Source: Methanomassiliicoccaceae archaeon UBA472
GTDB lineage: Archaea > Thermoplasmatota > Thermoplasmata > Methanomassiliicoccales > UBA472
Direction: 5' to 3'
DNA length: 64,000 nt
Assembly (NCBI GenBank): GCA_002497075.1
Contig: DAML01000015.1
Location: 110,224 to 174,223 of the forward strand
Shown: piece by piece, positions 3,708-32,461 of the stretch
How positions within the stretch are numbered: position 1 is the stretch's first letter
Layout of the letters: each line of letters opens with the position of its first letter
Translations under genes and position numbers: made by a program
The notes under the pieces: model-generated
Told to the model about the DNA's origin: nothing
Seen by the model: only the letters and a program-made list of their open reading frames with translations
Databases searched by the model: none

Positions 3708-3766
3708 CCGGCAGGGATTAGAGGACCGGGCTTAAATAAACATTTGATTCGGTGCAGTGAAAATGC

Positions 3767-5521: not shown

Positions 5522-5530
5522 CAGTGCGCC

Positions 5531-18639: not shown

Positions 18640-18700
18640 GTCCTTAAAACATTGCAGGGGACGGGGGAAAGGATATTATGGCCTCACGGGCTTGACCCAA

Positions 18701-18717
18701 TTGGATGATTAATCCAA
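18701..18717 (+). promoter_or_regulatory. Palindromic candidate operator S1 (TTGGATGATTAATCCAA) upstream of or overlapping the cobQ start
   Basis: One of five copies of the TTGGATG-ATA-CATCCAA palindrome. A TATA-like GATATTAT lies at 18672-18679, about 20 bp upstream. Confidence 0.6.
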
Positions 18718-20555
18718 CCGAGGGGGTCAAGGACGACTCGGAGGAGAACTACGGCAAACATGCCAGCAATCTCCGCTCTCAGATGAGGAGAGGCATGATC
18801 GGCAGCAACACCGAATGCGCCCACTACCCATGCCATCATCAAGGACAGAACTGCACCTTCTGCTTCTGCCCCTTGTATCCCTGTCTGGATCCCGAGCTGG
18901 GTGAATACGTCACTTCCAGACGGACCGGCGGGCAGGTCTGGTCGTGCCAGAGCTGTCTCTGGATCCACCGGGACGACGTCACCGACTCGCTCTTCAAGAT
19001 GATGCCTGAGATCGGAGAAAATGGTCTGGACGAAAGGACCAGGTCGGACCTCAAGGCGAGGCTGGAAGGGAAGCATCGCACAAAGGCCAAGACCATAATG
19101 GTTCTCGGTGCCACGTCCGGAGCGGGTAAATCGCTCCTGGTGGCCGCTCTCTGCCGGGCCTTCCGCGATCGCGGTCTCAAGGTCGCCCCGTTCAAATCGC
19201 AGAACATGTCGCTGAACTCCATGGTCACCGGCGACGGGGAGGAGATCGCCCGCATCCAGGACCTGCAGGCGCGAGCGGCCGGAACGCGACCGCGGGGGGA
19301 ACTGAATCCTATTCTGTTGAAGCCAAAGGGCGGAGTGACGTCCCAGGTGATAGTTGAGGGGCGTCCATACAAGGACTGCACGGTGCAGGAATACTATTCG
19401 CAATTCGTTCCCGACGAGGCCCCGGTCATCATCGCCCGCAATCTGGAACGGTTGATGCGCACCAATGACGTGGTGGTGATCGAAGGCGCCGGCTCGCCCG
19501 CCGAGATAAACCTGCGCGGAAGAGACGTGGCCAATATGTACGTGGCGAAGCTGGCCAAGGCAGACTGCCTTCTGGCGGTGAACATCGACTGGGGCGGCGC
19601 TTTCGCTTACGCGGTCGGCACGCTCATGCTGCTGGATGAGGAGGAACGCAAGCTCTTCAAAGGCGTCCTGATCAACAACATGTGCCCCGGGGGCGGTTCT
19701 CTCGGTGAATCCCTGGACATGGTGAGGAGAATTACCGGAGTGCCGGTCCTGGCGGTGCTTCCTCACGTTCCCTCCCTGTACCTGCCGGTCGAGGATTCCA
19801 TGGACCTCGACCAGCGCGACGACGGTGACGGAACGACCGTGGTGGCGGTGGTCCGTTTGCCGATGATCTCTAATTTCACCGACTTTGACGCGTTGTCGTT
19901 GGAGGAAGGGGTCAAGGTCATTTACGCGAGAACGCCGGAGGAGCTGGGACCGGCGGACGCCATCATCGTTCCCGGGACGAAGAACACCGTGCAGGACCTG
20001 CTCTGGCTGAACGAGAGCGGCATGGCCTCGGCCATATCGGCCAAGGTTGGGACGGTTCCCGTTCTGGGCATATGCGGCGGCTACCAGATGCTCGGCCGGA
20101 AGATATTCGATGTTCACGGCCTGGAGGGCAGCGGTCCATCGGAGATCGAAGGACTGGGGCTGCTGGACGCCGTCACTCATTTCGATTCGTACGACAAGAG
20201 GACCGTGCAGGTCCTTGGATCACTGGCTGACGGCGGGGAGGTGCGCGGTTACGAGATACACATGGGCCGTACGGAACGCTTAGAGGAACCGCTGTTCCGT
20301 CTGCGGCCGGACGGGCGGGAGGAAGGCTCCTGGAGCCGTGAACGAAAGGTCCTGGGGACGTATTTGCACGGCGTGTTCGACCTGCCGGCGTTCCGCGGCT
20401 TCTTCCTTTCGATGATCGAGCATCGCGATGCGCCGAAGAACAACGGAACGGACCACGACGCCGAGATCGATTCCTCTCTAGATCGTCTAGCGGCGATGGT
20501 CGAGGAACATCTTGATCTCGACAGTCTGCTAAGGGGTGATGGCGACGTTCCGTAG
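18705..20555 (+). CDS. cobQ: Cobyric acid synthase (CobQ/CbiP) with an N-terminal Cys/His-rich small domain
   Basis: The N-terminal ~80 aa are CAHYPCHHQGQNCTFCFCPLYPC...WSCQSCLWIH. An ATP-binding domain (GATSGAGKS) and a GATase-1 domain (GICGGYQMLG, YEIHMG) follow. The start is ambiguous: ATG 18705 lies inside operator S1, and alternatives are ATG 18783 and 18795. Confidence 0.85.
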   Translation: MINPTEGVKDDSEENYGKHASNLRSQMRRGMIGSNTECAHYPCHHQGQNCTFCFCPLYPCLDPELGEYVTSRRTGGQVWSCQSCLWIHRDDVTDSLFKMMPEIGENGLDERTRSDLKARLEGKHRTKAKTIMVLGATSGAGKSLLVAALCRAFRDRGLKVAPFKSQNMSLNSMVTGDGEEIARIQDLQARAAGTRPRGELNPILLKPKGGVTSQVIVEGRPYKDCTVQEYYSQFVPDEAPVIIARNLERLMRTNDVVVIEGAGSPAEINLRGRDVANMYVAKLAKADCLLAVNIDWGGAFAYAVGTLMLLDEEERKLFKGVLINNMCPGGGSLGESLDMVRRITGVPVLAVLPHVPSLYLPVEDSMDLDQRDDGDGTTVVAVVRLPMISNFTDFDALSLEEGVKVIYARTPEELGPADAIIVPGTKNTVQDLLWLNESGMASAISAKVGTVPVLGICGGYQMLGRKIFDVHGLEGSGPSEIEGLGLLDAVTHFDSYDKRTVQVLGSLADGGEVRGYEIHMGRTERLEEPLFRLRPDGREEGSWSRERKVLGTYLHGVFDLPAFRGFFLSMIEHRDAPKNNGTDHDAEIDSSLDRLAAMVEEHLDLDSLLRGDGDVP

Positions 20556-21393
20556 GCTTATGATCCAGGGCGTGACCTCCGGGGCTGGAAAGACCACCCT
20601 CACCGCCGCGCTGTGCCGCCATTTCTCATCGAGCGGCGTAGACGTGGTCCCGTTCAAAGCGCAGAACGTCTCGCTCAATTCCTACGTTACCAAGGACGGC
20701 AAGGAGATGGCCATATCGCAGGCCTACCAGGCCTGGGCCTGCGGGCTGGAGCCGTCGGCGGACATGAACCCCATCCTGATCAAGCCGAAGGGAAACGGCC
20801 AATGCCAGATCGTGCTTCGCGGGAAACCCTGGCAGGACCTCGGTCCCGGTGGTAGCACTCCCGCAACGATCGAGACGCTCCGCGAGCAGGTGCTGACCGC
20901 CTTCCACAACAACGCTTCCGGAAGGGAGCTGGTGCTGATAGAGGGCATGGGCTCCCCGGTGGAGATGAACCTCAAGGACAAGGATGTCAGCAACATGTGG
21001 CTGGCCAAGGCCACGCGCTCGCCTGTCGTTCTCGTGGGGGACATCGAGAAAGGGGGCGTTTTCGCCGGTATTTACGGAACCTATCTTCTCATGGACGAGG
21101 AGGAGCGGGACCTGCTCAAGGGATTCGTTATCAACCGCTTCCGCGGTGACGGATCGATACTGAAGGAGGGGATCGAGGAGCTGGAGTCCCGCATGGAGAT
21201 GCCCTGTCTCGGCGTCCTGCCGATGGTCCGGTTCAGCGCCCCGGCCGAGGATTCCTTGGACCTAACGAGGCCTTCAGGGAACGGTGCCGGCTCCGGCGAT
21301 ATCAGGCAGCGTTGGATGCGCGAGCTGGACGGGGTTCTGGAAAAATGGGAAGGGGCCTGGGACCTTGAGCAGGTCCGAAGGCTTATCGATTAA
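20536..21393 (+). CDS. CobQ-like ATP-binding domain protein lacking the glutamine amidotransferase domain
   Basis: 285 aa. It has GVTSGAGKT, MNPILIKPKG, IEGMGSP and VINRFRGD, and ends after the LGVLP region with no GATase Cys/His motifs. It overlaps cobQ by 20 nt. Confidence 0.75.
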   Translation: MMATFRRLMIQGVTSGAGKTTLTAALCRHFSSSGVDVVPFKAQNVSLNSYVTKDGKEMAISQAYQAWACGLEPSADMNPILIKPKGNGQCQIVLRGKPWQDLGPGGSTPATIETLREQVLTAFHNNASGRELVLIEGMGSPVEMNLKDKDVSNMWLAKATRSPVVLVGDIEKGGVFAGIYGTYLLMDEEERDLLKGFVINRFRGDGSILKEGIEELESRMEMPCLGVLPMVRFSAPAEDSLDLTRPSGNGAGSGDIRQRWMRELDGVLEKWEGAWDLEQVRRLID

Positions 21394-21404
21394 CCTTTAA
21401 CGTT

Positions 21405-21692
21405 TCAGAGGCGGTTGCCGCACTTCGGGCAGTACTGGGCGCCCGGCTCATAAGCGGCCCCACAGCTGCGGCAGGTGTTCCCCTGCTGGGGCTGCTGGTA
21501 CTGTTGCGGGGGCTGTTGGTACTGCTGGGGAGGTTGCTGGTACGGCTGTTGATATGGCTGGTTGCCGTAGTAGCCCGTTCCAAACTGTGGTCTCTCCTCG
21601 TACTTCATCAGGAAGTAGATGATCGCCGCAGGCCAGCATATTATTATCAGGATGATCAAGATCACCCAGCTGCCAGTGAATTCCTTCGACAT
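21405..21692 (-). CDS. Small membrane-anchored zinc-ribbon protein with a Q/P/Y-rich linker
   Basis: 95 aa. It has an N-terminal TM (WVILIILIIICWPAAIIYFLM), a QPYQQPYQQPPQQYQQPPQQYQQPQQ linker and a C-terminal CRSC-x11-CPKC zinc ribbon. Confidence 0.6.
   Translation of the reverse strand: MSKEFTGSWVILIILIIICWPAAIIYFLMKYEERPQFGTGYYGNQPYQQPYQQPPQQYQQPPQQYQQPQQGNTCRSCGAAYEPGAQYCPKCGNRL
21483..21560 (-). repeat. In-frame imperfect tandem repeat (about 21-nt unit) encoding the Q/P/Y-rich linker
   Basis: The plus strand reads ...ggggctgctggtactgttgcg ggggctgttggtactgctgggg aggttgctggtacgg..., which corresponds to QQPPQQY units. Confidence 0.6.
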
Positions 21693-21750
21693 GAATTTCC
21701 ACCTTTGGCGTTCAATAACTTGAGGAATATTTATTCATTCCCACATATTT

Positions 21751-22221
21751 TCAATCTTCTGATCTCGTGGGCTCCCGAGCGCATCTAGGATAGGATGCGT
21801 AGGACGGGCACTCCTTGCAGCGCTTCAGCATCCTTCTTCCCTTCAGGTACTCGAAGACGACGATGACTGTTATTATGAACGGGTAAACGTAGATCCTCAG
21901 GTCGGGCGGGCAGACGATGGCTGAATAGGTGGCCATCGCCAGGCTCGATCCCAGGACCATATTGAAGATGATAGATAACCCACGTCCAGATGTGACGAAC
22001 CGCAGCAGTTGGAAGGAGAACTGGAGCAGCGACGCGAAGAAGGCGGCTTCGAACGTCGGCCGACCCACGAACAGGAGGACCAGCATTACCAGGAAGGTCG
22101 GGTACACCGTGACACAGCCCCGGCACACCTTCCGGCCTCTTATGGTAAGCAGATGGTCGTCGAAGCGGCCGCAGAGCGGGTGGTGGGCCAGCAGAATGGG
22201 CTCGTTCCTCAGCTCGTCCAT
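21751..22221 (-). CDS. Cys-rich integral membrane protein (DUF2085-like by eye)
   Basis: 156 aa. It has HHPLCGRFDDH ... CRGC at the N-terminus, about 4 TM helices and CKECPSYASYPRC at the C-terminus. It is divergent from the btuF-like operon. Confidence 0.5.
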   Translation of the reverse strand: MDELRNEPILLAHHPLCGRFDDHLLTIRGRKVCRGCVTVYPTFLVMLVLLFVGRPTFEAAFFASLLQFSFQLLRFVTSGRGLSIIFNMVLGSSLAMATYSAIVCPPDLRIYVYPFIITVIVVFEYLKGRRMLKRCKECPSYASYPRCAREPTRSED

Positions 22222-22305
22222 GAACTTGATGTGGCCACCTCCTCCCTGCCCTCACTACCATACCGGTGTGCCATTGATAAAAAATGACCGCTAAATCATT
22301 TATAC

Positions 22306-22322
22306 TTGGATGATATATCCAA
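22306..22322 (+). promoter_or_regulatory. Palindromic candidate operator S2 (TTGGATGATATATCCAA)
   Basis: It directly follows a TATA-like TCATTTATAC (22296-22305) and lies 48 nt before the btuF-like ATG. Confidence 0.6.
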
Positions 22323-22328
22323 TTCAAG

Positions 22329-22345
22329 TTGGATAATACATCCAA
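22329..22345 (+). promoter_or_regulatory. Palindromic candidate operator S3 (TTGGATAATACATCCAA)
   Basis: Second tandem copy. Its centre is 23 bp from the S2 centre, and it ends 24 nt before the btuF-like ATG (22370). Confidence 0.6.
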
Positions 22346-22369
22346 CTAGCTAACAGAAAGTGATTCCAC

Positions 22370-23464
22370 ATGGATAAGAAGGCGATAATCGCAATCATAC
22401 TGGTCGTGGCGCTCGTTGCCGTCGGGACCGTAATGGTATTGGGTATGAACCCCTCCGGTGGCGAGGGCGATGGACCGGTCTCGGTCATCGACGCCAACGG
22501 AAGGACCGTGACCACTGACGAGGCGCCGACGCGCATCGTTTCCTGCTCCCCCTCATTGACCGAGATGGCCTATGCCATGGGGATAGGGCAGAACCTGGTG
22601 GCCGTCACCGACTACTGTGACTGGCCTGCGGATGTCAACGCCAGGAAGGCCAACGGGACGCTAGAATCCGTCGGCGGATACTTCACTCCCAGCGCCGAGG
22701 CGGTCATCGCCGCCGAGGGTGACCTCATCCTCATCGACAAGGGCGTGCAGGCCCAGATCGACATGCTGACCCAGCTGGAGAACGCCGGGCTGAACGTGAT
22801 CGTTCTGGATAAGGGTACCACCTTTGACGAGGTCTATGACGCCATGCTGATGATCGGAGAGATATGCTGGGTCAAGGAAGAGGCCGAAGATCTCGTCGAC
22901 ACCATGAAAGAGCGCCTGGCGGCCATCGAGGCCGAGATAGGCGATGTGGAAGAGATGCCGACCATGACCTTCGCCGTTTGGCTGGACCCCATCTACCTCA
23001 GCGGTAACGGGACCTTCTCCGCCGACGTGATGAGGCACGCCATGGGCGAGAACGTCTACTCCAACCTGACCGGATGGCCCGATGTATCCGTGGAATCTAT
23101 GCTGGAGACCGACCCTGACTATCTGGTCGTTTCCATGATGTACCTGGCGTCCCCCGGCGAGGAGATAATCTCCGGCCTGGAGAACGACACCATCTGGTCC
23201 GAGCTGTCCGCCGTCCAGAACAAGCGGGTGTACATACTGACCGGTCAGTCCGACAACGTGTTCAGCCGCCCCGGCCCGCGCATGGTGGACGCCGTGGAGC
23301 TGCTGGCCCAGATTCTGCATCCTGATGTGTTCAACGTCAGCATGCCGCACGTGATATCCGACGACTACGTCGATTGGGTCTCGTCCGGCGAGTCTGCGGA
23401 AGCGGAGGCAATGCCCGTTGAAGCCACGGAGATCGTGGCGATGGTGCAGGCAAGAATCGAATGA
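22370..23464 (+). CDS. ABC transporter substrate-binding protein, BtuF/FecB type (corrinoid or iron-chelate)
   Basis: 364 aa. It has an N-terminal membrane anchor (IIAIILVVALVAVGTVMVLG) and the binding-protein pattern RIVSCSPSLTEMAYAMG. It is the first gene of the string that continues into the cob genes. Confidence 0.85.
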   Translation: MDKKAIIAIILVVALVAVGTVMVLGMNPSGGEGDGPVSVIDANGRTVTTDEAPTRIVSCSPSLTEMAYAMGIGQNLVAVTDYCDWPADVNARKANGTLESVGGYFTPSAEAVIAAEGDLILIDKGVQAQIDMLTQLENAGLNVIVLDKGTTFDEVYDAMLMIGEICWVKEEAEDLVDTMKERLAAIEAEIGDVEEMPTMTFAVWLDPIYLSGNGTFSADVMRHAMGENVYSNLTGWPDVSVESMLETDPDYLVVSMMYLASPGEEIISGLENDTIWSELSAVQNKRVYILTGQSDNVFSRPGPRMVDAVELLAQILHPDVFNVSMPHVISDDYVDWVSSGESAEAEAMPVEATEIVAMVQARIE

Positions 23465-23586
23465 ACAGGTCCTCCTTCCCCGTGGCGTAGGGCGCAAATA
23501 TAATAGCTGGCCCGCGTTACGGGAAACAACTTACCTCCGAAGGGTGCTCCGCACCGGTTCCGGCGGTCATACAAGGGTGATGCGAA

Positions 23587-24630
23587 ATGGGATCGACCAA
23601 GGCGAGCAGGGCGAAGATCAAGCTAGCCCTGATTCTCGGCCTCGGTTCGATCAGCATCGTCCTTCTTTTCATTCTTTCGCTCACCACCGGGGTCATGGAC
23701 ATCTCCTTCCAGGAGGCCATGTCCGGCCTTTGGAATCTCATTCAGAACGGCGGGGAGCACGAGAACACCAAGGAGCTGGTGCTCTGGCAGCTCCGCATCC
23801 CCCGGGCCCTGGGCGTGATCGCCGTCGGCATCGGGCTATCGGTGGCCGGGGCGGTGATGCAGGCGCTGATCCGGAATCCTCTGGTGGACCCGTACATCAC
23901 CGGTGTCTCATCCGGCGCGGCACTGGGGGTCACCACTGCGGTCCTGGCGGGAGTGACCATCGCCGGGCTAGGTGTGTTCGTCACTCCCGTCATAGCCTTC
24001 GTCGGAGCGGTGATGGCATTCTTGTTCACCATGCTTCTGGCCGAGGCCGCCGGCGGGCGTTCGATAAGCTATGTGCTGGGAGGGGTGATCGTGGGAATAG
24101 CCCTGCAGTCCGGGACCACCATCCTGATGTACTTCAACGCCGACCGGCTGCACAGCGTGCTCTATTGGCTGTTCGGTTCGTTCTCCACATTGAACTGGCA
24201 ATCGACATGGATCATCGTCGTCTGCGTTTCCGTGTTGTCTTTCATCATGCTGCTCTACGCCAAGGAGTTCAACGTCATCCTGCTGGGGGACGAGCAAGCC
24301 CGGCAGCTGGGAATGAACGTCAAGCCCTTCAAGACCGGCATGTTCATACTAGTGTCCGCTTTAGCGGCGGTCTGCGTGGCCTTCACCGGGATAATAGGTT
24401 TCGTCGGTCTCATCGTCCCTCACCTGGTCCGGATGGTCATAGGCGGCGATCACCGTCTGCTGCTACCGGCATCCATGGTGGTAGGGGCAAACATTCTATT
24501 GGTGGCCGACATTGTATGTAAGACCGTGATAGCTCCTTCCGAGCTACCGATAGGTGCCGTAATATCGATCATCGGCGCTCCGTTCTTCGGGTACCTGATG
24601 ATCAGGATGGGTAAGGAATATGTCATGTGA
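23587..24630 (+). CDS. ABC transporter permease, FecCD/BtuC family
   Basis: 347 aa with about 9-10 TM helices and the family pattern LLGDEQARQLG ... GIIGFVGLIVPH. Confidence 0.9.
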   Translation: MGSTKASRAKIKLALILGLGSISIVLLFILSLTTGVMDISFQEAMSGLWNLIQNGGEHENTKELVLWQLRIPRALGVIAVGIGLSVAGAVMQALIRNPLVDPYITGVSSGAALGVTTAVLAGVTIAGLGVFVTPVIAFVGAVMAFLFTMLLAEAAGGRSISYVLGGVIVGIALQSGTTILMYFNADRLHSVLYWLFGSFSTLNWQSTWIIVVCVSVLSFIMLLYAKEFNVILLGDEQARQLGMNVKPFKTGMFILVSALAAVCVAFTGIIGFVGLIVPHLVRMVIGGDHRLLLPASMVVGANILLVADIVCKTVIAPSELPIGAVISIIGAPFFGYLMIRMGKEYVM

Positions 24631-25483
24631 CGGCGAGCTGACGGTGAAGGTCGACAACATCTCCTTCAGCTACGGCGCCAAGAAGAGCCTCTGCCCCCGG
24701 ACCTTGAAAGGCATCACGATCGACGCCAAGAAGGGGCAGCTCATCGGAATAATGGGCCCCAACGGCTGCGGCAAGACCACCTTCATGCGCTGCATCAACA
24801 AGGTTCTGAAGCCGCAGGAGGGCGCCATATACATCGACGGCAAGGACCTGGACCGCCTCAAGATGATGGAGGTGGCCAAGATCTGCGCCAACATCCCGGC
24901 GGACGTGCCGGACGACTTCCATCTGTCCGTGGAGGAGTTCGTTGCCTTAGGGCGCTATCCGTTCGTCACCGGCATCTGGTGGGAGGGAGAGAAGGACGAG
25001 CAGCTGGTGCGGGACGCCATGAAGGCGTACCACGTTACCCATCTTAAGGACAGGAAGCTCGGAGAGCTCAGCAGCGGGGAGAAAGCGCGGGTGCTACTAG
25101 CGAAGGGAGCGGTCCAGCAGCCGAAGATCCTACTGGCCGACGAGCCGAGCGCGCATCTTGATCTGAAGTACAAACTGCAGGTCATGCAGGCCTTGAAGGA
25201 CCTCTCCCGTCAGGGTGTCACGGTCATAACCGCCTCGCACGACATCAACCTGATCGCCAAGTACGCCGATCTGGTGATAGTCATCAGCGACGGCGGCATT
25301 ATCAGCTACGGACCTCCGGCGGAGGTCATCAACGAGGAGATCATCCGCGCCGTGTACGGCGTGGAGGTCACCATCATCCGGGACGGCGGGGAACTGTACG
25401 TGATCCCGCTGAGACCGGCGGACCCGGAGAAGGGCGACGATGAAAATACAAGACCTTGTGAAAAGGGAATTGTTGCCGATTAA
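24620..25483 (+). CDS. ABC transporter ATP-binding protein, BtuD/FepC type
   Basis: 287 aa. It has Walker A GPNGCGKTT, signature LSSGEKARV and Walker B ILLADEPSAHLD. Confidence 0.9.
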   Translation: MSCDGELTVKVDNISFSYGAKKSLCPRTLKGITIDAKKGQLIGIMGPNGCGKTTFMRCINKVLKPQEGAIYIDGKDLDRLKMMEVAKICANIPADVPDDFHLSVEEFVALGRYPFVTGIWWEGEKDEQLVRDAMKAYHVTHLKDRKLGELSSGEKARVLLAKGAVQQPKILLADEPSAHLDLKYKLQVMQALKDLSRQGVTVITASHDINLIAKYADLVIVISDGGIISYGPPAEVINEEIIRAVYGVEVTIIRDGGELYVIPLRPADPEKGDDENTRPCEKGIVAD

Positions 25484-26585
25484 GAGGCCCGTGCACGGAG
25501 GCCAGGGCTGGAAGCTCCCCGGTGTGGAGGACTTCAGCCACAACCTCAACCCGTATGGGCCTCCAGCGGAGCTGCCGCGATTGGTCGCCGAAGCGGCCGA
25601 GCATTTGGGGCACTACCCGGACGACACGGCCGCGGAGTTCCGGGAGGAAGTGGCCAAGCTGCACAACGTGTGGCCGGAGAACGTAATCGCCGGCGCCGGC
25701 TCGGCCGAGCTCATACGATTGTATCCAGAGGTGTTCCTTTCCCGCAAGGCCCGGGTCATCATTCCCAGGCCTACGTTCTCGGAATACTCGCACGCCTGCC
25801 GCATGCAGGGCGCGAACATACTGGACGTGCCGCTCATCGAGGGCGAAGGGTTCCGCCTGGACATGAACGCCATCCGTGAGAAGCTGCCTTTGGCCAGGGC
25901 GCTGTACATCTGCAACCCGAACAATCCCACTGGCACGGTCGAAACGAAAAGGCGCATCATGGAACTGGTGGACGAGTGCGAAGCGGCTGGCAAGCTGGTC
26001 TTCCTGGACGAGACGCTGCTGGAACTGGTGGACGAGCACGACAGCGTGTCGTGCATGTCCGAGGTGCAAAGCCACGAGAACCTGTTCATCATCTCCTCGT
26101 TGACGAAATCGTTCGCCATCCCCGGCATGCGCGTCGGTTACGGCGTGGGCGGCGTGGAGATCGTGGAAATGATGGAACGCGCCCGGCTCTCCTGGAACCT
26201 GGGCGTGATCGAGCAGTACGTGGGCGCTCGTTTGCTGCGCGATCATCAGGACCACGTGCGCAAGGCGGCGAGGATGATGGCATCCGAGCGCGCCCGCATC
26301 AAGAAGGCCGTGGACGGCACCGGGCTCTTCTCGCCGCTTCCGGACCAGTGCTTCTTCTTCTTCACCCGGGTCAACGACCCCAAGATGGCCGCGGAGGACG
26401 TGGTGGAGCATCTTCTGCCGCGCAAAGTGCTGGTCAGGGACTGCTCCACTTTCGGCAGGCCGTTCGACAAGTTCGTCCGCTTCAGCGTTAAGACGCCGGA
26501 GAAGAACGATCTTCTCATCTCCGCGATGGAGGAGACGGCCAGGGAGATCCGCAGCACGGCGTTCGGGGCGAGGATGCATGTTTGA
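25440..26585 (+). CDS. cobD: L-threonine-O-3-phosphate decarboxylase (CobD/CobC aminotransferase-fold enzyme)
   Basis: 381 aa. It has the N-terminal HGG motif (RPVHGGQ), a class I/II aminotransferase fold and the PLP-lysine region SLTKSFAIPGMRVGY. It sits immediately upstream of cbiB and overlaps the ATPase gene by 44 nt. Confidence 0.8.
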   Translation: MKIQDLVKRELLPIKRPVHGGQGWKLPGVEDFSHNLNPYGPPAELPRLVAEAAEHLGHYPDDTAAEFREEVAKLHNVWPENVIAGAGSAELIRLYPEVFLSRKARVIIPRPTFSEYSHACRMQGANILDVPLIEGEGFRLDMNAIREKLPLARALYICNPNNPTGTVETKRRIMELVDECEAAGKLVFLDETLLELVDEHDSVSCMSEVQSHENLFIISSLTKSFAIPGMRVGYGVGGVEIVEMMERARLSWNLGVIEQYVGARLLRDHQDHVRKAARMMASERARIKKAVDGTGLFSPLPDQCFFFFTRVNDPKMAAEDVVEHLLPRKVLVRDCSTFGRPFDKFVRFSVKTPEKNDLLISAMEETAREIRSTAFGARMHV

Positions 26586-27573
26586 GCTGGTCCCTTACGC
26601 GTTCCTGACGATGATCGTCGCCCTGCTCGTCGACCGTTTCATCGGCGAACCGCCGAACGCCTTGCATCCGGTGGTCTGGATGGGCAAGGTGATATCGTTC
26701 TTCGACAAACGAATATCGCGCGGGCACCCCCGGCGGGAGCGTTTCTTCGGGATGGTGATGGCGTTGGCCGTCATCCTGCTGTTCTCTGTCATGGTCCTTC
26801 TCCTGATGGCTCTGGTGCGGGACGTCCTGGGGCTGCTGGTATGGGCCATCGTCGGCGGTGTTCTGCTGAAGACCATGTTCGCCATGTCGGCGATGGGAAA
26901 GCACATCGAGCCGGTGCGCGAGGCGCTGCTGGCCGGCGATCTGGAACTCGGTCGTCAGAAAGCAGCCATGATGGTCTCCCGGGACGTGAGCCAGTTAGAT
27001 AAGGAGCACGTGATCTCCTGCGCGGCCGAGAGCGCGGCGGAGAACACCGTGGACTCTATTTTCTCTCCGTTGTTCTACTTCGGTCTGCTGGGGCTTCCGG
27101 CCGCCGTGGCGTATCGCGTATCGAACACCCTGGACGCCATGGTCGGTTATCTGAACGACAAATATCGCTACGTGGGATGGTTCTCGGCCAAGCTCGACGA
27201 TTGCACCAACTTCGTCATGGCCCGGGCGGCGGTGCCGTTCATTCTTCTTGCCCTGATCATTCTGGGCAAGGACTGGCGGGCTGGCTGGGGCGCTTCCAAG
27301 AAGTATCATGATCAGACGTTATCGCCGAACAAGGGATGGCACATGTCCGCCTTCGCCGGCGGATTAGGCATCAGGTTCGAAAAGATCGGCTGGTACGTCA
27401 TGGGCGACGGGCCGCTTCCGTCCGACCCCGATGTGCTTAGGGATACCATAAAGGTCATGACCATGGCCTCGTATCTCTTCGTGCTCACGGTGGTCGTGCC
27501 GCTCTACCTTCTGGTAGGTGCGGAGGCGCAGGTGTTCTTGGAGGACCTCCTGCTAGGGCTGATAGGTGTTTAA
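26578..27573 (+). CDS. cbiB: Adenosylcobinamide-phosphate synthase (CbiB/CobD membrane protein)
   Basis: 331 aa. It has LLVDRFIGEPPNALHPVVWMG and ENTVDSIFSPLFYF, typical of the CbiB family. Confidence 0.9.
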   Translation: MFELVPYAFLTMIVALLVDRFIGEPPNALHPVVWMGKVISFFDKRISRGHPRRERFFGMVMALAVILLFSVMVLLLMALVRDVLGLLVWAIVGGVLLKTMFAMSAMGKHIEPVREALLAGDLELGRQKAAMMVSRDVSQLDKEHVISCAAESAAENTVDSIFSPLFYFGLLGLPAAVAYRVSNTLDAMVGYLNDKYRYVGWFSAKLDDCTNFVMARAAVPFILLALIILGKDWRAGWGASKKYHDQTLSPNKGWHMSAFAGGLGIRFEKIGWYVMGDGPLPSDPDVLRDTIKVMTMASYLFVLTVVVPLYLLVGAEAQVFLEDLLLGLIGV

Positions 27574-27574
27574 G

Positions 27575-28711
27575 ATGAAACTGAGCGAGGCGCGGGTCGA
27601 GAAGGGCGTGGTGGACGGGCACAAGTACGTGGCCATACGGTTGCCGCGACGAATGCGCACTTTGGCGTCCACCATATTGAACGGCGGGCTGGGAGAGACC
27701 GATTCCGTGCTGATGCTACAGGTCTCGCTGCATTACGATCATTCCGATCCGGTGGAACATATGCGCTCCCTGCTGCCCCGGCTGAACCTTCCTTCCGATA
27801 CGGTCTGTTTCATGACCGCCGCCGAGCTGGACAAGGCCTTTTGTACGAAGGGCATAGAGCAGAACGGGTCGGAAGCACTGGCGTTCGTCAGCGCCGGGAT
27901 ATCCAACGCCATCCGCGCCGGGGAATCGTCACGCGAGGGCAGCGTTCCTCACCGCCAGGTGGGAACGATAAACGTCATGGTGGTGACGGACGAACCGTTG
28001 GACGACTGCGCCCTGGCGAACGCGATAATGACGGTCACGGAAGCGAAGGCCGCCGCCCTGGAGGACCATCACATTCCCGGTACCGGAACGACCAGCGACG
28101 CCGTGCTGGTCATGTGCCCTTCTGACGGGGAGAAGTGCCTGTGGTCCGGAAGCTCCTCCGATCACGGCATCGCCATGGCGGTGGCGGTGCGTTCCGCTCT
28201 GGGCGAATCGATAACCAGGTGGAAGGGGGCGAACGGGGACTCCGTTCACTTCCTGAGGCATCTGGCGATACGCGGTATCACCTACGACGACATGTGGAAC
28301 TCGGTCAAGGAGATGAACGCCCTGGACCCGGCCTGGGATGAAACGGTCATACGAAATAAGTTCGAGAAGAAGCTGGAGCTGCTGGCCAAGGACATAAACG
28401 TGAACGCCCTGCTCACGGCGGCCATACTCCTGGAGGAGAAGGGACGGTACGGGCAGCTCTACGGACTCAACGAAGAGAAGTACCAGGAGGACCCGGTGCA
28501 CCTGCTGGCCGACGAGCTTCTGGGCATCGCCCTCGCGGAATACATCGGCGGCTCCAAGTGCGTATTCGAGTACATCCGCTACGACAAGAAGAAGCCGGGT
28601 ATACTTTCCAAACTGGGGCCTTTCATGGATGACATCGTTGCGTCGTTGATAGGAGCGACCATGTCCACGATCTACTCGGAGATGCTGGAGGGAGAGGGAC
28701 GACTGTCCTAG
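27575..28711 (+). CDS. cbiS: Adenosylcobinamide amidohydrolase CbiZ fused to a CobZ-like C-terminal domain (CbiS-like bifunctional architecture)
   Basis: The N-terminal ~220 aa are CbiZ-like (ILNGGLGE, NVMVVTDEPL, TVTEAKAAAL, GTGTTSDAV). The C-terminal ~150 aa form a helical domain resembling the alpha-ribazole phosphatase CobZ part of CbiS. ATG 27575 lies 1 nt after the cbiB stop; GTG 27566 is an alternative start. Confidence 0.7.
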   Translation: MKLSEARVEKGVVDGHKYVAIRLPRRMRTLASTILNGGLGETDSVLMLQVSLHYDHSDPVEHMRSLLPRLNLPSDTVCFMTAAELDKAFCTKGIEQNGSEALAFVSAGISNAIRAGESSREGSVPHRQVGTINVMVVTDEPLDDCALANAIMTVTEAKAAALEDHHIPGTGTTSDAVLVMCPSDGEKCLWSGSSSDHGIAMAVAVRSALGESITRWKGANGDSVHFLRHLAIRGITYDDMWNSVKEMNALDPAWDETVIRNKFEKKLELLAKDINVNALLTAAILLEEKGRYGQLYGLNEEKYQEDPVHLLADELLGIALAEYIGGSKCVFEYIRYDKKKPGILSKLGPFMDDIVASLIGATMSTIYSEMLEGEGRLS

Positions 28712-28734
28712 GCGCGCTCAAGGCCGCCCTCACC

Positions 28735-29487
28735 ATGTTCACGGTCATACCGGCCAAGGTGGACGGTGAGGACGTGGACCATCTCTCGCGCAGATTCTAT
28801 CTCATCGTGTTCATAGGCGCACTGTACGGACTCCTGGCCACAGGGATATTCTACCTGGGGGAGGACCTCCTGTCCACGGCCGTCCTGGCCGCCGTGGTCC
28901 TGGCCGTGTTCCACCTGCTGAACCGATTCCTGCACCTGGACGGGCTGAGCGACTTCGGGGACGGGATGGTCTGCGGCGGTAATGCCGAACGACGCATGGC
29001 GGCCATGAAGGACTCCAAGACCGGGGCCGGCGGGGTCGGTTATGCGCTCGTGTTCACCATTCTAAGCTTCGCCGCGCTCGCTTCCCTCACTGGCAAGGCC
29101 GAGCTGCTCTTCATTCCGCTCATCGCCGAGATCATGAACAAGAACGCCATGGTGTTCTGCGCCTACGGCGGCAAAGCGCGCGAGGGGCTGGGAAACGCAT
29201 TCGTTTCCAACACCAAGGGAAAACAGGCCATTTCCTCGTTCGCCCTGTCGGTCCTACTGGCCTTTGTGTTGATACTAATGGTGTGCCTTCCCACCGGTTA
29301 CTGGTATGTTGGTGAGATCGCCCTGTTCACCGTTGCCGGCGCTCTCGTTAGCGCTATCGTCGGCTTGGTGATGAGCAGTGTAGCTATGAAGAACTTCGGG
29401 GCGGTGAACGGCGATGTCATGGGCGCGACGAACGAGATCTCCCGGCCGGTGGTGCTGATCGCTCTCCTATTGCTGGTGGCGCTATGA
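28735..29487 (+). CDS. cobS: Adenosylcobinamide-GDP ribazoletransferase (cobalamin synthase CobS)
   Basis: 250 aa with about 6 TM helices, the N-terminal F-T-V-I-P motif and the HLDGLSDFGDG motif. Confidence 0.85.
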   Translation: MFTVIPAKVDGEDVDHLSRRFYLIVFIGALYGLLATGIFYLGEDLLSTAVLAAVVLAVFHLLNRFLHLDGLSDFGDGMVCGGNAERRMAAMKDSKTGAGGVGYALVFTILSFAALASLTGKAELLFIPLIAEIMNKNAMVFCAYGGKAREGLGNAFVSNTKGKQAISSFALSVLLAFVLILMVCLPTGYWYVGEIALFTVAGALVSAIVGLVMSSVAMKNFGAVNGDVMGATNEISRPVVLIALLLLVAL

Positions 29488-30110
29488 GCGTGGCCGCGCT
29501 GATAACCGCCGGAGGGCGCGGGACCAGGATAAAGGAGCTGGGGGTGGAGAAGCCCATGGCGCCGTTGCACGGCCGGCCGATGGTCGACCACGTCCTGGAG
29601 CAGATGATGCTGGTCGATGAGATATCATCCGTTTACGTTTCCATAAGCGACAATGTGCCGAAGACCAGGGATCATCTGAGGAAGTTGGGGGTCAATGTTC
29701 TGGAAACGTCCGGCACGGAGTACTGCCACGACCTCATTCAGGCGGCGGAAGGGATATCTGAAGATCACATATTCATCTGCCCGGCCGACCTGCCGCTGTT
29801 GAGGGCGGAACTGGTCTCCGACGTCGTGAGAGAGTATCTGAAAAGAAAGGAGCAGTCCCTGACCGTCGGCATCCCGTTGGAAAAGGCCTTGGAGTTCGGT
29901 GTGGACGTTACGTTCTACGAGAACGTGGACGGTCGTTCTTTAATTCCCTGCGGCGTTAGCGTGGTCGATCGGAAAAGAATGCTCACCCGGGAATACCTTC
30001 CCGGAAGCTATTTCGTCGCTGATACGCCGGACGTGGCCGTCAACGTCAATACCCCGGACGACCTGAAGAAGGCTGAGAAGGTGCTGCACCAGCGGCTCAC
30101 TTGCCCATGA
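29484..30110 (+). CDS. cobY: Adenosylcobinamide-phosphate guanylyltransferase, archaeal CobY type
   Basis: 208 aa with the nucleotidyltransferase loop LITAGGRGTR. Size and position (after cobS, with a 4-nt overlap) match CobY. Confidence 0.75.
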   Translation: MSVAALITAGGRGTRIKELGVEKPMAPLHGRPMVDHVLEQMMLVDEISSVYVSISDNVPKTRDHLRKLGVNVLETSGTEYCHDLIQAAEGISEDHIFICPADLPLLRAELVSDVVREYLKRKEQSLTVGIPLEKALEFGVDVTFYENVDGRSLIPCGVSVVDRKRMLTREYLPGSYFVADTPDVAVNVNTPDDLKKAEKVLHQRLTCP

Positions 30111-31200
30111 TCCTCATCAGCTGGACGTAGTTCTCTTCCACCTTGGCCAGCATCTGCCCCTTGCCGATCTTTCCCTGAGTGGCCAGGAAGGCCGCCACGG
30201 ATATTCCGCCGGCGCCAACGCCCTCTTTGACCAGCCCCTTCTCGTAGACGTTCAATCCGTCGTACTGGGAGGAGCCGAAATCCAGGTCCGCGGCTAGGAT
30301 GGGAACTTTGCCGATCTGCTTCATTATAGACCGTACGTCCGAGGAGCGGTCGTTCACGATCCACTTGGTGGTGCCTAGGGCTATGTTCGAAAGAACTTTT
30401 GGCGCCAGGCCTTTCACTATGGCCATGACGGCGGCCATCTGCGTACCCCCTGCCATGATGACCGGTATGCTCTCCGCCGCTCCGGCTACGACGCCCGCGG
30501 CGGCGGGCATCATCGGGTCGCCGACGGCCGCGACCGCCTTCAACGGATCGGCCTTCATCTCCTCCTTGCTGAACGGGGAGTTGGAGATGCCCTCCAGAAC
30601 TATTTTTTCCTTAAGCGAATGAGGGTTATCGATCATGGAGCTGGAAACCTTGCCCTGGCCGTCGTATCCCATTGCCAGAAGCACGGCCAGAGCGGTGGTC
30701 GTCCCGCCGGCGATGCTCTCCCCTATGACCAGGTACTCGCTGTTCTTGGCCATCTCCCTACCTAGAAGCACACCGTTCTCGTACACCCGGCGGGGGTCCT
30801 TGAGCGCCCTTCCGGTGCGGATGTCCTCGCCTGGGACGCCCTCCAGCTCGAAGTAGGGAGTGTGCGGTCTAACGTTAACGCCTCCGTTTATGGCGAAGGT
30901 GGGCATGGACACCAATTGCAGGGCGCTCATGGTGATGATGCCGGGGGTCGGTACGCCGGTCGGGGTAACCGGAACCCCGTCGATGCACTTGCATCGTCCG
31001 TAGTGAAGCAGTTCTACGTCAGCCGCGGGTGTGAAGTCGGTGATCTCCGGCACCGCCCCGGCGGCGGACACGCCCGGGATCTTCGCAGTTTCCGTGTTCC
31101 CGATGACCACGGCGTAGGTCGGGCGCTTGCCCCAGACCTTTTCAACGAACTTCCTTCCCGCCTGCTCCTCGAACGCGTAAATGATGTCCGCCTTGTGCAT
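30097..31200 (-). CDS. cobT: Archaeal-type nicotinate-nucleotide:dimethylbenzimidazole phosphoribosyltransferase (CobT homologue, UPF0284 family)
   Basis: 367 aa. It has VIGNTETAKIPGVSAAG and GESIAGGTTTA, patterns typical of the archaeal CobT family. Confidence 0.8.
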   Translation of the reverse strand: MHKADIIYAFEEQAGRKFVEKVWGKRPTYAVVIGNTETAKIPGVSAAGAVPEITDFTPAADVELLHYGRCKCIDGVPVTPTGVPTPGIITMSALQLVSMPTFAINGGVNVRPHTPYFELEGVPGEDIRTGRALKDPRRVYENGVLLGREMAKNSEYLVIGESIAGGTTTALAVLLAMGYDGQGKVSSSMIDNPHSLKEKIVLEGISNSPFSKEEMKADPLKAVAAVGDPMMPAAAGVVAGAAESIPVIMAGGTQMAAVMAIVKGLAPKVLSNIALGTTKWIVNDRSSDVRSIMKQIGKVPILAADLDFGSSQYDGLNVYEKGLVKEGVGAGGISVAAFLATQGKIGKGQMLAKVEENYVQLMRIMGK

Positions 31201-31233
31201 GATGAGGACCTCTGGATTCGATGCAACTATTCA

Positions 31234-31250
31234 TTGGTTGTATCATCCAA
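31234..31250 (-). promoter_or_regulatory. Palindromic candidate operator S4 (gene-oriented TTGGATGATACAACCAA) upstream of cobT
   Basis: It lies 34-50 nt upstream of the cobT ATG (31200). A TATA-like TTAAATAT (reverse complement of 31266-31273) lies about 20 bp further upstream. Confidence 0.6.
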
Positions 31251-31306
31251 CTCAACGCGAAGATGATATTTAACTTATTGCCGAAAGCAGAAAAATCATG
31301 AAGGGT

Positions 31307-32356
31307 TCAATCCTCGAGGATGATGTCCAGGAGCGTTCCGAGCGGAGCGTTCTCCCCGCCGTTCTCGTGGAACCCGTTCGTACCTTTTCCTTTCCACTGA
31401 CCCCCGCAGACGGCGTAAGGGACCTTCATGCACATGTGCTCCCCGGTGAGCGATGACGCGCCGTGATCGATCAGCAGAGCCACCCGGCATTCCCGGAAGC
31501 GCTTCTCGTAACGTAGAAGCTCCCTGTCTATCTCCTCGATCAGCTTCAGCTTGTTCTTGGGATTGCACTTGTGGCTGATGTCGTCCGTCTCCTCGATGTG
31601 CAGGAAGGCGTCGTTCCTGTCCAGGACCTGCGCGGCAACTTTGATCCCTTCCTTGAAACCGGGGACGCGCATCGTTTCCATGCCCAGGAACTTGCCCACG
31701 CCCAGGGCGGAAGGGCTCTTGGATATGACCGTTAGATCGGGAACCTTGGATATCTGCCGGCGGACGTCTACGGCCACTTTGCCAAGACCTCCGCCCCAGG
31801 GCAGGAGGGCTATTCCGCCGGTGCTCTCGCGAACGCCCTTGGCGAAATTCAGGAAGGGGCCGAGGTCCTCGGAGCTGATGCGGGCCGGACCGGGCGGCTT
31901 CGGCAGGTCGAGTATCTCATCGCCCTTTATCGTCAGGACGCCTTTTCCGCCGTGGTACGCTAGGATCTTGGGGTCCATGTCCGAGAGCTTGGAGCGGTTC
32001 TTGATTATGGCCCGCTGCAGGAACATCTCCTCGTCGCAGGTGATGTTGTAGTACCATTCCACGTGGTGGTCGTGGACCTTGGCCGGGGTCATGCGGTAGG
32101 CGACACGGCCTTCGCCGATAGGCAGTTCCAGGCCGTACGCCTCGATGACTCCCCGCGGAATGTCATAAGGCTTGCCAGTGAGGAGCTCTAAAAGGAACGT
32201 GTGGGTGTAGTCCTTCCCGTCGGTGGTGCCGACCTTCCCGTCGCGTGCCACGCTGTCCATGAAATCCTTGCGGGCCGCCTCCAGGGGGGTGCGGTTGTTG
32301 AATATCGAGATGCGCTCGTCGGCCGCGCCGTCCAGCAGGATGATTAGGTTCCTCAT
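31307..32356 (-). CDS. ApgM-like metalloenzyme (alkaline-phosphatase superfamily, cofactor-independent phosphoglycerate mutase-related), atypical
   Basis: 349 aa. It has the N-terminal IILLDGAAD ... RTPLEAARKDFMDSVARDG and C-terminal metal-ligand-like blocks (HIEETDDISH, LLIDHGAS, GEHMCMKVP). It is shorter than typical ApgM, and the position of the expected nucleophile reads GKDYTH. Confidence 0.65.
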   Translation of the reverse strand: MRNLIILLDGAADERISIFNNRTPLEAARKDFMDSVARDGKVGTTDGKDYTHTFLLELLTGKPYDIPRGVIEAYGLELPIGEGRVAYRMTPAKVHDHHVEWYYNITCDEEMFLQRAIIKNRSKLSDMDPKILAYHGGKGVLTIKGDEILDLPKPPGPARISSEDLGPFLNFAKGVRESTGGIALLPWGGGLGKVAVDVRRQISKVPDLTVISKSPSALGVGKFLGMETMRVPGFKEGIKVAAQVLDRNDAFLHIEETDDISHKCNPKNKLKLIEEIDRELLRYEKRFRECRVALLIDHGASSLTGEHMCMKVPYAVCGGQWKGKGTNGFHENGGENAPLGTLLDIILED

Positions 32357-32401
32357 TTAACAGGCCTGACGCTTCCGAATGGCCTTGGCCATATAATATC
32401 T

Positions 32402-32418
32402 GTTGGTCGTATCGTCCA
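32402..32418 (-). promoter_or_regulatory. Palindromic candidate operator S5 (gene-oriented TTGGACGATACGACCAA) upstream of the ApgM-like gene
   Basis: It lies 46-62 nt upstream of ATG 32356. AT-rich boxes sit on both sides: AATAAATT (reverse complement of 32430-32437) and the ATATTATATG region (reverse complement of 32389-32400). Confidence 0.55.
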
Positions 32419-32461
32419 ACTGCGGGCATCAATTTATTCCTCAGGTCCCATTTGCTCAGGC

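Follow-up and report, generated by a model that had tools for sequence, protein, structure and literature searches.

A 17-bp palindrome at corrinoid gene promoters of Methanomassiliicoccales is a candidate operator of an archaeal B12 regulon

In a 64,000-nucleotide stretch of DNA from Methanomassiliicoccaceae archaeon UBA472 (contig DAML01000015.1, positions 110,224 to 174,223; hereafter the window), a 17-bp palindrome of the consensus TTGGATG-WWW-CATCCAA occurs in exactly five copies, all of them in the core promoters of genes for corrinoid metabolism: cobQ, btuF (two copies), cobT and an ApgM-like gene. Its specificity, its conservation in relatives and its position next to conserved TATA boxes argue that a dimeric regulator very probably binds this palindrome as the operator of a vitamin B12 regulon. 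A family of proteins that join a winged helix-turn-helix (wHTH) domain to a DUF4443 domain lies repeatedly beside the motif in other archaeal DNA and probably, with moderate confidence, provides that regulator. Methanomassiliicoccales live by methyl-reducing methanogenesis, which depends wholly on corrinoid proteins, and inhabit guts, digesters and sediments in which corrinoids are exchanged among microbes. The control of B12 supply in archaea is essentially unknown, and the operator offers a means of reading the regulon from archaeal genomes and metagenomes.

Results

The palindrome in the window

The palindrome consists of two 7-bp arms around a 3-bp centre (7-3-7), an inverted repeat that suits a dimer. 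Among 16 distinct sites compared, no variation occurs at positions 2-4 and 14-16 and hardly any at positions 1 and 17, and the three central bases are A or T throughout. A search of the window with TTGGATGATACATCCAA at up to 3 mismatches returned five matches against a chance expectation of 0.09, a count equalled in 0 of 100 shuffles. A symmetric position weight matrix (PWM) was derived from the sites of relatives and then run over all 64,000 window positions; the five sites scored 21.7 to 28.3 bits and the next best position 9.4 bits. Given this gap of more than 12 bits, there is no sixth copy in the window, nor a halo of weaker ones. The initial annotation of this DNA, made by eye, had likewise reported five copies and no other full one, with an ATG at 18705 inside the first and with the centres of the btuF pair 23 bp apart, and the mismatch search, the PWM scan and the sequence itself bear this out.

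Site S1 (TTGGATGATTAATCCAA, 18701-18717, forward strand; 28.3 bits) spans the start of the gene for a zf-like+CobQ fusion, whose ATG at 18705 lies within it, and is preceded at 21 nt by a TATA-like box, GATATTAT (18672-18679, forward strand). An identical S1 occupies the same place in the related loci L004, L005, L008-L011 and L015 (the prefix L denotes loci), and the box, as GGATATTAT, is retained in L015. Two sites follow each other at the btuF operon. The TATA-like box TCATTTATAC (22296-22305, forward strand) abuts the distal site S2 (TTGGATGATATATCCAA, 22306-22322, forward strand; 28.2 bits), which lies immediately 3' of it, and the proximal site S3 (TTGGATAATACATCCAA, 22329-22345, forward strand; 28.2 bits) ends 24 nt 5' of the ATG at 22370. 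S2 is limited to close relatives (L004-L015); L018-L020 keep only a TCCAAC half-site there. On the reverse strand, S4 (TTGGATGATACAACCAA in the direction of the gene, 31234-31250; 26.7 bits) lies in the cobT promoter 33 nt 5' of the ATG at 31200, with a TATA box TTAAATAT at 31266-31273. S5 (TTGGACGATACGACCAA in the direction of the gene, 32403-32419, reverse strand; 21.7 bits) lies in the promoter of the ApgM-like gene 46 nt 5' of its ATG, with a TATA-like box AATAAATT (reverse complement of 32431-32438). S5 is also found in L004, L005, L011 and L012, and a variant of it in L016, ATGGATGATATGTCCAA, lies 23 nt 5' of the ATG of the ApgM-like orthologue. The positions first annotated for S1 to S4 and for the three boxes at 18672-18679, 22296-22305 and 31266-31273 stand; S5, previously placed at 32402-32418, and its box were each one base off.

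Conservation at orthologous promoters

The window was compared with 80 CbiB-anchored loci of species-representative genomes, comprising 25 loci from Methanomassiliicoccales (416 kb; CbiB identity from 94% down to 48%) and 55 control loci (765 kb), mostly from Dehalococcoidia and other Chloroflexota, with a few other bacteria and methanogens. At up to 3 mismatches the palindrome was matched 49 times in 17 of the 25 Methanomassiliicoccales loci, and mapping of the window proteins onto these loci placed nearly all matches upstream of cobQ, btuF, cobT or the ApgM-like gene. The 55 B12 loci from outside the Methanomassiliicoccales contained no match in 765 kb; a similar density in unrelated DNA genome-wide had been named beforehand as the finding that would speak against an operator. 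In L016-L020, L024 and L048, whose CbiB proteins are 50-62% identical to that of the window, the sites at btuF and cobT match the consensus perfectly or almost so.

Ten cobT promoters (alignment A1) and eleven btuF-type promoters (alignment A2) were aligned from genomes with CbiB 50-94% identical. Mean column identity in the two alignments is 49%, and the sole conserved blocks are the TATA box and the palindrome. At cobT only TTAAATA and the palindrome are conserved, with 16 nt between them, and T49, A52, T53 and A54 of the TATA box are invariant. At btuF the S3 palindrome is present in 11 of 11 promoters, with TTGGAT and ATCCAA invariant, and the AT-rich box aligns in all 11 as well. The phylogenetic footprinting proposed by the initial annotation thus finds the palindrome at orthologous cobT and btuF promoters down to approximately 50% CbiB identity, where the flanks have diverged. 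One of its claims did not survive this comparison: the centre of the site had been described as keeping a fixed orientation relative to the gene, whereas the btuF and cobT sites of L016, L017, L024 and L048 have the opposite orientation (GTATC or GAATC), and orientation is constant only in the window and its close kin.

Outside this group the site changes. In L023 and L026, which represent a more distant lineage (CAYYZD01, JAGGSW01), the corresponding places in the btuF and cobT promoters are taken by another palindrome of 17 bp, TAGGATAAnTTATCCTA (approximately 2200-2360 and 10950-11100 in L023; approximately 5830-5990 and 14580-14720 in L026). It has the form TAGGATAA-n-TTATCCTA and retains a GGAT-N7-ATCC core. 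L026 is labelled Odinarchaeota yet has an operon of the Methanomassiliicoccales type, and may be misbinned. The host-associated Methanomassiliicoccus loci L021, L022 and L027 have degenerate versions of the palindrome only.

Position relative to the core promoter

In archaea, transcription typically begins about 22-27 nt beyond the TATA box. The palindrome sites are preceded by conserved TATA boxes at distances of 0-23 nt, and transcription starts were predicted from the TATA-to-start distance. At S1 the start is expected at about 18700-18705, within the site. At btuF, S3 begins approximately 22-23 nt after the TATA box that S2 abuts. At cobT the order is TATA box, 16 nt, palindrome, and then the ATG after 23 nt in distant relatives or 33 nt in the window. 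In two further loci described below, L207 and L220, the TATA box abuts the site. With the usual archaeal distance, each site would therefore cover the expected start or the stretch between TATA box and start, which is the geometry of archaeal repressors that block the polymerase.

Two readings that dispense with a DNA-binding regulator have to be weighed against this arrangement. The copies might be a dispersed repeat, or might have clustered by chance and have no regulatory role: a 17-mer arises by chance in very large sequence collections, and exact matches in metagenomes often fall in unrelated DNA or in coding sequence. With 0.09 copies expected in the window, five are present, all in the core promoters of one pathway; they are conserved at orthologous promoters over approximately 50% protein divergence, as their flanks are not, and the control loci hold none. 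Window statistics, footprints and control loci thus effectively refute this reading, to which we assign a virtually negligible probability. Alternatively, the palindrome might act as an RNA hairpin with a 7-bp stem and a 3-nt loop at mRNA 5' ends and govern stability or translation. S3 would be transcribed if btuF transcription started just upstream of it, and S5 differs from the consensus jointly at positions 6 and 12 (C...G for T...A) with pairing kept; such a symmetric change is, however, equally expected of a dimer site. The cobT TATA box lies so close to the palindrome that the expected start falls within it, and the full hairpin would not be transcribed; the abutting boxes of L207 and L220 also tell against an RNA, as does the presence of both centre orientations at orthologous promoters. 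Across relatives, S4 and S5 retain an A/A mismatch in the stem, at positions 5/13 of the site, and the outer four arm bases (TTGG/CCAA) are near-invariant in sequence and not merely in pairing. In L099, L108, L127 and L207, moreover, one palindrome serves two divergent genes. A search of the whole window against Rfam 15 at gathering scores gave no RNA family, and therefore no cobalamin riboswitch there. We consider the hairpin highly improbable. A scan of the region for promoters and terminators of bacterial type gave no more matches than shuffled sequence, and is uninformative for an archaeon.

Motif-linked genes in metagenomes

Metagenome contigs were scanned for exact matches to TTGGATGWWWCATCCAA, which yielded at least 120 loci (737 kb). 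Approximately 20 among the at least 120 matches listed are intergenic and lie directly before genes of B12 type. The motif precedes cbiM in L091, cbtB-cbtA in L099, genes for BtuF-like binding proteins with btuCD in L102, L125, L128, L150, L167, L168 and L174, cobT in L114 and zf-cobQ in L118 and L127. Two sites stand before a cobD-cbiB-cbiZ-cobS-cobY operon in L126, and one before a sirC-hemA-hemB-hemL-hemC-cobA operon in L116. In L108, L189, L175, L186 and L197 the motif lies before genes for secreted or surface proteins whose N-terminal part resembles DUF4430 by eye; Pfam lent no support to DUF4430 in these 297-324-aa and PQQ-propeller surface proteins, save for a weak precomputed match in L220. 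The surface proteins are likely to bind corrinoids.

Some other matches form sets of their own. L095, L107, L140, L158, L170 and L182 share identical flanks around a perfect site, namely a G+C-rich hairpin with a T-run followed by TTGGATGTATCATCCAA; the neighbouring genes of these six contigs are not B12-related, and the set suggests repeated sampling of a single abundant organism or element. L162 (446-509) and L165 (2100-3850) match the pattern fortuitously, through arrays of TTGGATGAAAC-type repeats, which are repeat elements and not operators; these contigs (JGI sets Ga0123357 and JGI24699) presumably come from termite gut. In L190 (2067-2447), a contig of 64% G+C, a perfect site flanked by G...C is found 19 nt 5' of a gene resembling zinc-type alcohol/threonine dehydrogenases (PF08240), which may be a further regulon member tied to the aminopropanol linker, or a chance match.

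A candidate regulator family

Searches with tblastn and a family hidden Markov model (HMM) found genes for wHTH+DUF4443 proteins in five of the at least 120 motif loci (L108, L189, L145, L186 and L099), in each at no more than about 120 bp from the motif. The target operon of L108 and L189 is flanked by a divergent gene for a protein of 201-211 aa (201 from the annotated ATG) with a PF22167 winged helix and PF14544, the architecture also given by precomputed Pfam matches for the family members P0001-P0121. In these two loci and in L207 and L208, the site lies in a 47-nt gap between the DUF4443 gene and the divergent operon, which encodes the 297-324-aa DUF4430-like protein and the S component of an energy-coupling factor (ECF) transporter, and the TATA box abuts the site. 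In L145 the ATG of the DUF4443 gene falls inside the palindrome. In L099 the site separates the DUF4443 gene, a fragment assigned by HMM, from cbtBA. L186 has the order S-adenosylmethionine (SAM) synthetase, DUF4443, site, surface protein. Thus in L108, L189, L145 and L099 the site is on or beside the start of the DUF4443 gene itself, as in autoregulation. The motif-linked proteins are 32-38% identical across four full-length groups, and the association is therefore not one lineage counted repeatedly. Entry from the protein side gave a consistent picture: the gene for P0058 (L220) adjoins an operon for ECF-S-like and DUF4430 proteins, with TTGGATTATATATCCAA between the TATA box and the ATG of that operon.

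Methanomassiliicoccales encode the wHTH+DUF4443 family, according to the source names of its members. One of them, P0040, is in metagenome-assembled genome (MAG) JAEILR01, Methanomassiliicoccus sp. MXMAG1, the MAG that also contains L020 with the motif before btuF. The DUF4443 protein of L186, whose gene is followed just downstream by the motif, is 75% identical to a Methanomassiliicoccales DUF4443 protein.

The candidate regulators match a protein of known structure, PDB 2P8T (phmmer E = 1e-12), which is PH0730 of Pyrococcus horikoshii, a structural-genomics protein of unknown function. An AlphaFold model (predicted local distance difference test score, pLDDT, 88) had 2p8t as its top Foldseek match (E = 1.4e-10; template modelling score, TM, 0.67-0.71). 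PH0730 shares sequence, fold and the PF22167+PF14544 architecture with the candidates and differs from them in gene neighbourhood. By fold search the family has an N-terminal domain like the winged helices of CggR and MarR and a C-terminal one like the insertion domain of bacterial aspartyl-tRNA synthetase (GAD-like). A literature search on DUF4443 and PH0730 found no functional study, only a listing in a catalogue of P. furiosus transcription factors. That a crystal structure already exists makes the regulator hypothesis testable.

The initial annotation had supposed that the regulator is not obviously encoded in the window, and this agrees with what was found: the DUF4443 HMM had no match there or in the 25 Methanomassiliicoccales B12 loci, and five window proteins considered as regulators were rejected. 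These are a Cys-rich membrane protein of 156 aa (21751-22221) without family match, a 95-aa membrane zinc-ribbon protein, a MEDS+PAS protein (10409-11911) that has no DNA-binding domain, and two open reading frames (ORFs) of 149 and 145 aa that are not HTH-like. The gaps of L018, L019 and L026 were inspected as well and contain only a radical-SAM-like protein and a DUF488-like one (both by eye), along with asparagine-synthase-like and membrane proteins.

The DUF4443 gene of Methanomassiliicoccales proper is found either behind the SAM synthetase gene or on its own (L211-L213, L217). Where the two are paired they are separated by 0-3 nt and apparently form one operon (L186, 2128-3912; L211, 4717-6585; L212, 3408-5192; L213, 145-1926). 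The pairing may indicate that SAM and B12 status are linked, or that the effector is a different one.

Several observations weigh against an operator bound by DUF4443 proteins in response to corrinoids. On the side of the operator, both the TATA boxes and the transcription starts at the sites are predictions; about half of the at least 120 metagenome matches listed fall by chance into long ORFs or into unrelated DNA; and the scans were confined to the 64-kb window, the 80 CbiB loci and the metagenome loci. On the side of the protein, the motif is absent upstream of the SAM synthetase-DUF4443 operon of Methanomassiliicoccales, which has no link to B12 genes and shows no sign of autoregulation; within or close to this order, gene and motif occur together in MAG JAEILR01 and in L186, neither of which is the genome of the window. 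Neither motif nor B12 neighbours were found in the DNA fetched around P0108 (L214-216) and P0015 (L209), and the neighbourhood of PH0730 (L221; pyrB, pyrI, pyrF) has no motif and no B12 genes within 10 kb on each side. The family is universal in Thermococcales and may hold several specificities; members from that order may have another regulon or motif. A fold search of the DUF4443 model for a known B12-binding domain found none and gave no pointer to a corrinoid ligand.

Alternative regulators

The same observations can be turned into a different account, according to which the palindrome does serve a B12 regulon as operator, but for a regulator from elsewhere in the genome (such as one of Lrp/AsnC, TrmB, MarR or ArsR type), and the DUF4443 genes beside the motif are merely members of the regulon. 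The lack of B12 linkage and of an upstream motif for the Methanomassiliicoccales DUF4443 gene fits this account, as do the several DUF4443 subfamilies unlinked to the motif, and many archaeal regulator families bind palindromes of 15-17 bp with an AT-rich centre. However, no other DNA-binding family recurs as often beside the motif (at least five sequence-divergent groups for DUF4443, two for Fur), the four loci in which the site covers or abuts the start of the DUF4443 gene bear the usual signature of autoregulation, and a wHTH protein that is a mere target in so many lineages is the less economical assumption. We judge such an outside regulator unlikely, with some residual weight. The Fur genes raise a more specific possibility, that a cobalt-sensing metalloregulator of the Fur family binds the palindrome and that the regulon answers to cobalt and not to corrinoids. 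In L127 the palindrome separates zf-cobQ from a divergent gene for a 127-aa Fur protein (PF01475), which heads a fur-cbiMN-cbiQ-cbiO operon (1437-4634); in L146 a 45%-identical Fur gene (1258-1730) lies approximately 90 nt from the site; and cobalt transporters belong to the regulon (L091, L099). Yet only 2 of the at least 120 loci have Fur beside the site, and no Fur gene adjoins a site in the 25 Methanomassiliicoccales loci or in the window. The L127 site lies upstream of the TATA-like box of fur but abuts the zf-cobQ TATA box, which suits control of cobQ. The motif is anchored by GG/CC, unlike the AT-rich 7-1-7 Fur boxes, and a separate TAGTAATGATT element near the Fur gene, common to L127 and L146, is more like a Fur box. 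Genes for corrinoid uptake and cobinamide salvage would also be unexpected targets of a cobalt sensor. A Fur operator is accordingly improbable, and we read the L127 protein as a cobalt-sensing co-regulator or a member of the regulon.

Fur homologues that are 32-34% identical were also seen near CbiB in three Dehalococcoidia loci (L044, L053 and L072). The Fur genes at B12 loci may represent a cobalt-responsive Fur subfamily.

Proposed mechanism and relation to known systems

From these patterns we infer which protein would bind the site, whether it represses or activates, and which effector it answers to. A homodimeric winged-helix regulator would bind TTGGATG-WWW-CATCCAA in Methanomassiliicoccales and some other archaea, most likely a wHTH+DUF4443 protein, whose co-repressor would be a corrinoid or some metabolite closely related to one. 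Between TATA box and start codon, over the expected transcription start, the bound dimer would block recruitment of RNA polymerase. Repression would extend to uptake by btuFCD, to cobinamide salvage and nucleotide-loop assembly (cobD, cbiB, cbiZ/cobZ, cobS, cobY, cobT and the ApgM-like gene) and to cobQ, and in other genomes the operator may also control genes for early tetrapyrrole synthesis and for cobalt uptake. With its two sites 23 bp apart, the btuF operon could place uptake under tighter or cooperative control in the clade of the window. The parts of this scheme differ in standing: we regard the operator of a B12 regulon with a dimeric regulator as very probable and a DUF4443 protein as that regulator with moderate confidence, whereas corrinoid-dependent repression seems to us an evenly balanced question. 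The widest version, in which the DUF4443 (PH0730-like) proteins would be an unrecognised family of corrinoid-responsive repressors with a GAD-like domain as sensor of B12 status, and the missing regulator of an archaeal signal predicted in 2003 (see below), is offered tentatively, at rather less than even confidence. If the effector is indeed a corrinoid, B12 would be sensed here by a protein of a new type.

The gene content of the regulon is that of bacterial cobalamin riboswitch regulons (RF00174), which comprise the same set: btuFCD, cbiMNQO, cbtAB, DUF4430/ECF components and cob/cbi genes. The device differs, a structured leader of about 200 nt there and a short DNA palindrome in the core promoter here. 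To our knowledge archaea lack cobalamin riboswitches. The proposal that the palindrome stands in for the riboswitch was part of the initial annotation and is strengthened by this shared gene set together with the Rfam result; its central proposal, an operator of a dedicated dimeric regulator of corrinoid uptake, salvage and assembly, likewise gains from specificity, footprints, control loci and the B12-gene contexts in metagenomes.

The predicted position of the palindrome is one familiar from archaeal core-promoter repressors. MDR1, LrpA, Phr, TrmB/TrmBL1 and NrpR have inverted-repeat operators at or just 3' of the TATA box, where the dimer blocks TATA-binding protein and transcription factor B (TBP/TFB) or the polymerase; the protein families and motifs of MDR1, LrpA, Phr, TrmB and NrpR differ from those described here. 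Closer in kind are ThiR (thiamine) and RbkR (riboflavin), archaeal vitamin regulators that reportedly emerged from comparative genomics in the Rodionov laboratory around 2017. They resemble the present candidates in combining a winged helix with a small ligand-sensing domain, in having palindromic operators that overlap vitamin-gene promoters, and in being often autoregulated. Their sensor domains derive from enzymes of the same pathway (ThiN and riboflavin kinase), whereas DUF4443 has no recognised relation to a B12 enzyme.

For B12 itself, Rodionov et al. are said to have predicted by comparative genomics in 2003 that some archaea have a hypothetical B12 regulator with a binding signal, the 'CBL-box'. 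We know of no protein ever assigned to it. Methanomassiliicoccales were not yet known at that time. Like the palindrome, the CBL-box is reported to be a DNA signal upstream of archaeal cobalamin biosynthesis and transport genes, a likeness by description. The palindrome had been called undescribed in the initial annotation; no described archaeal B12-responsive regulator was found in the literature, only TrmB in Halobacterium, and to that extent the word holds, tempered by the reported CBL-box. What appears to be new is the motif in Methanomassiliicoccales, the breadth of the regulon in uncultured archaea, the lineage-specific variant palindrome and, above all, a structurally solved candidate family. 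The operator also gives a handle on genes of unknown role that are regulated with it, namely the ApgM-like gene, the DUF4430-like surface proteins and the ECF components. In Halobacterium, TrmB reportedly controls cobalamin genes (PMC3794607), in response to sugar and via another motif.

Regulated genes and neighbours in the window

The window has a G+C content of 60%. Its CbiB is 94% identical to the CbiB proteins of Methanomassiliicoccales MAGs, and near-identical contigs derive from hydrocarbon-degrading methanogenic cultures. Four units lie behind the operators, and Pfam and NCBIfam scans uphold the gene calls of the initial annotation. The first (18705-21393, forward strand; Pfam, NCBIfam) encodes the zf-like+CobQ protein (18705-20555), in which a cysteine-rich zf-like domain is fused to CobQ, and a paralogue of the N-terminal half of CobQ (20536-21393, forward strand). 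The latter consists of the CobQ ATPase half alone (NCBIfam PRK00784, cobyric acid synthase, residues 7-247), has no glutamine amidotransferase domain and is kept in close relatives. The second unit is btuF-btuC-btuD-cobD-cbiB-cbiZ/cobZ-cobS-cobY (22370-30110, forward strand; Pfam, NCBIfam), in which BtuC is a FecCD protein, the CbiZ-CobZ fusion is CbiS-like and CobY is a CobY-like nucleotidyltransferase; its gene order is kept across Methanomassiliicoccales loci. The third is archaeal cobT (30097-31200, reverse strand; NCBIfam TIGR00303, 394 bits against a cut-off of 240).

The fourth unit (31307-32356, reverse strand) encodes the ApgM-like protein, a metalloenzyme by Pfam (PF01676). With 123 bits against 320 it falls far short of the cut-offs for apgM and phosphoglycerate mutase, and it also bears a resemblance to TIGR02535, 'proposed homoserine kinase'. 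Its gene is beside or near cobT in most Methanomassiliicoccales loci that have both. The protein could be the missing archaeal L-threonine kinase, an analogue of PduX that would feed CobD.

Two further genes adjoin these units. The 156-aa gene at 21751-22221 (reverse strand) is divergent from btuF; its product has no family match, apparently four membrane segments (by eye) and clusters of CxxC-type cysteines at both ends. The gene is kept in place only in close relatives (L004-L010, L015) and has its own AT-rich box approximately 30 nt beyond S2. The MEDS+PAS gene at 10409-11911 (forward strand), which encodes a sensor-like protein lacking a DNA-binding domain, follows trm5 and dcd and is syntenic with the B12 cluster. 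In L017 the MEDS+PAS gene (4194-5594) lies immediately 5' of the btuF operator.

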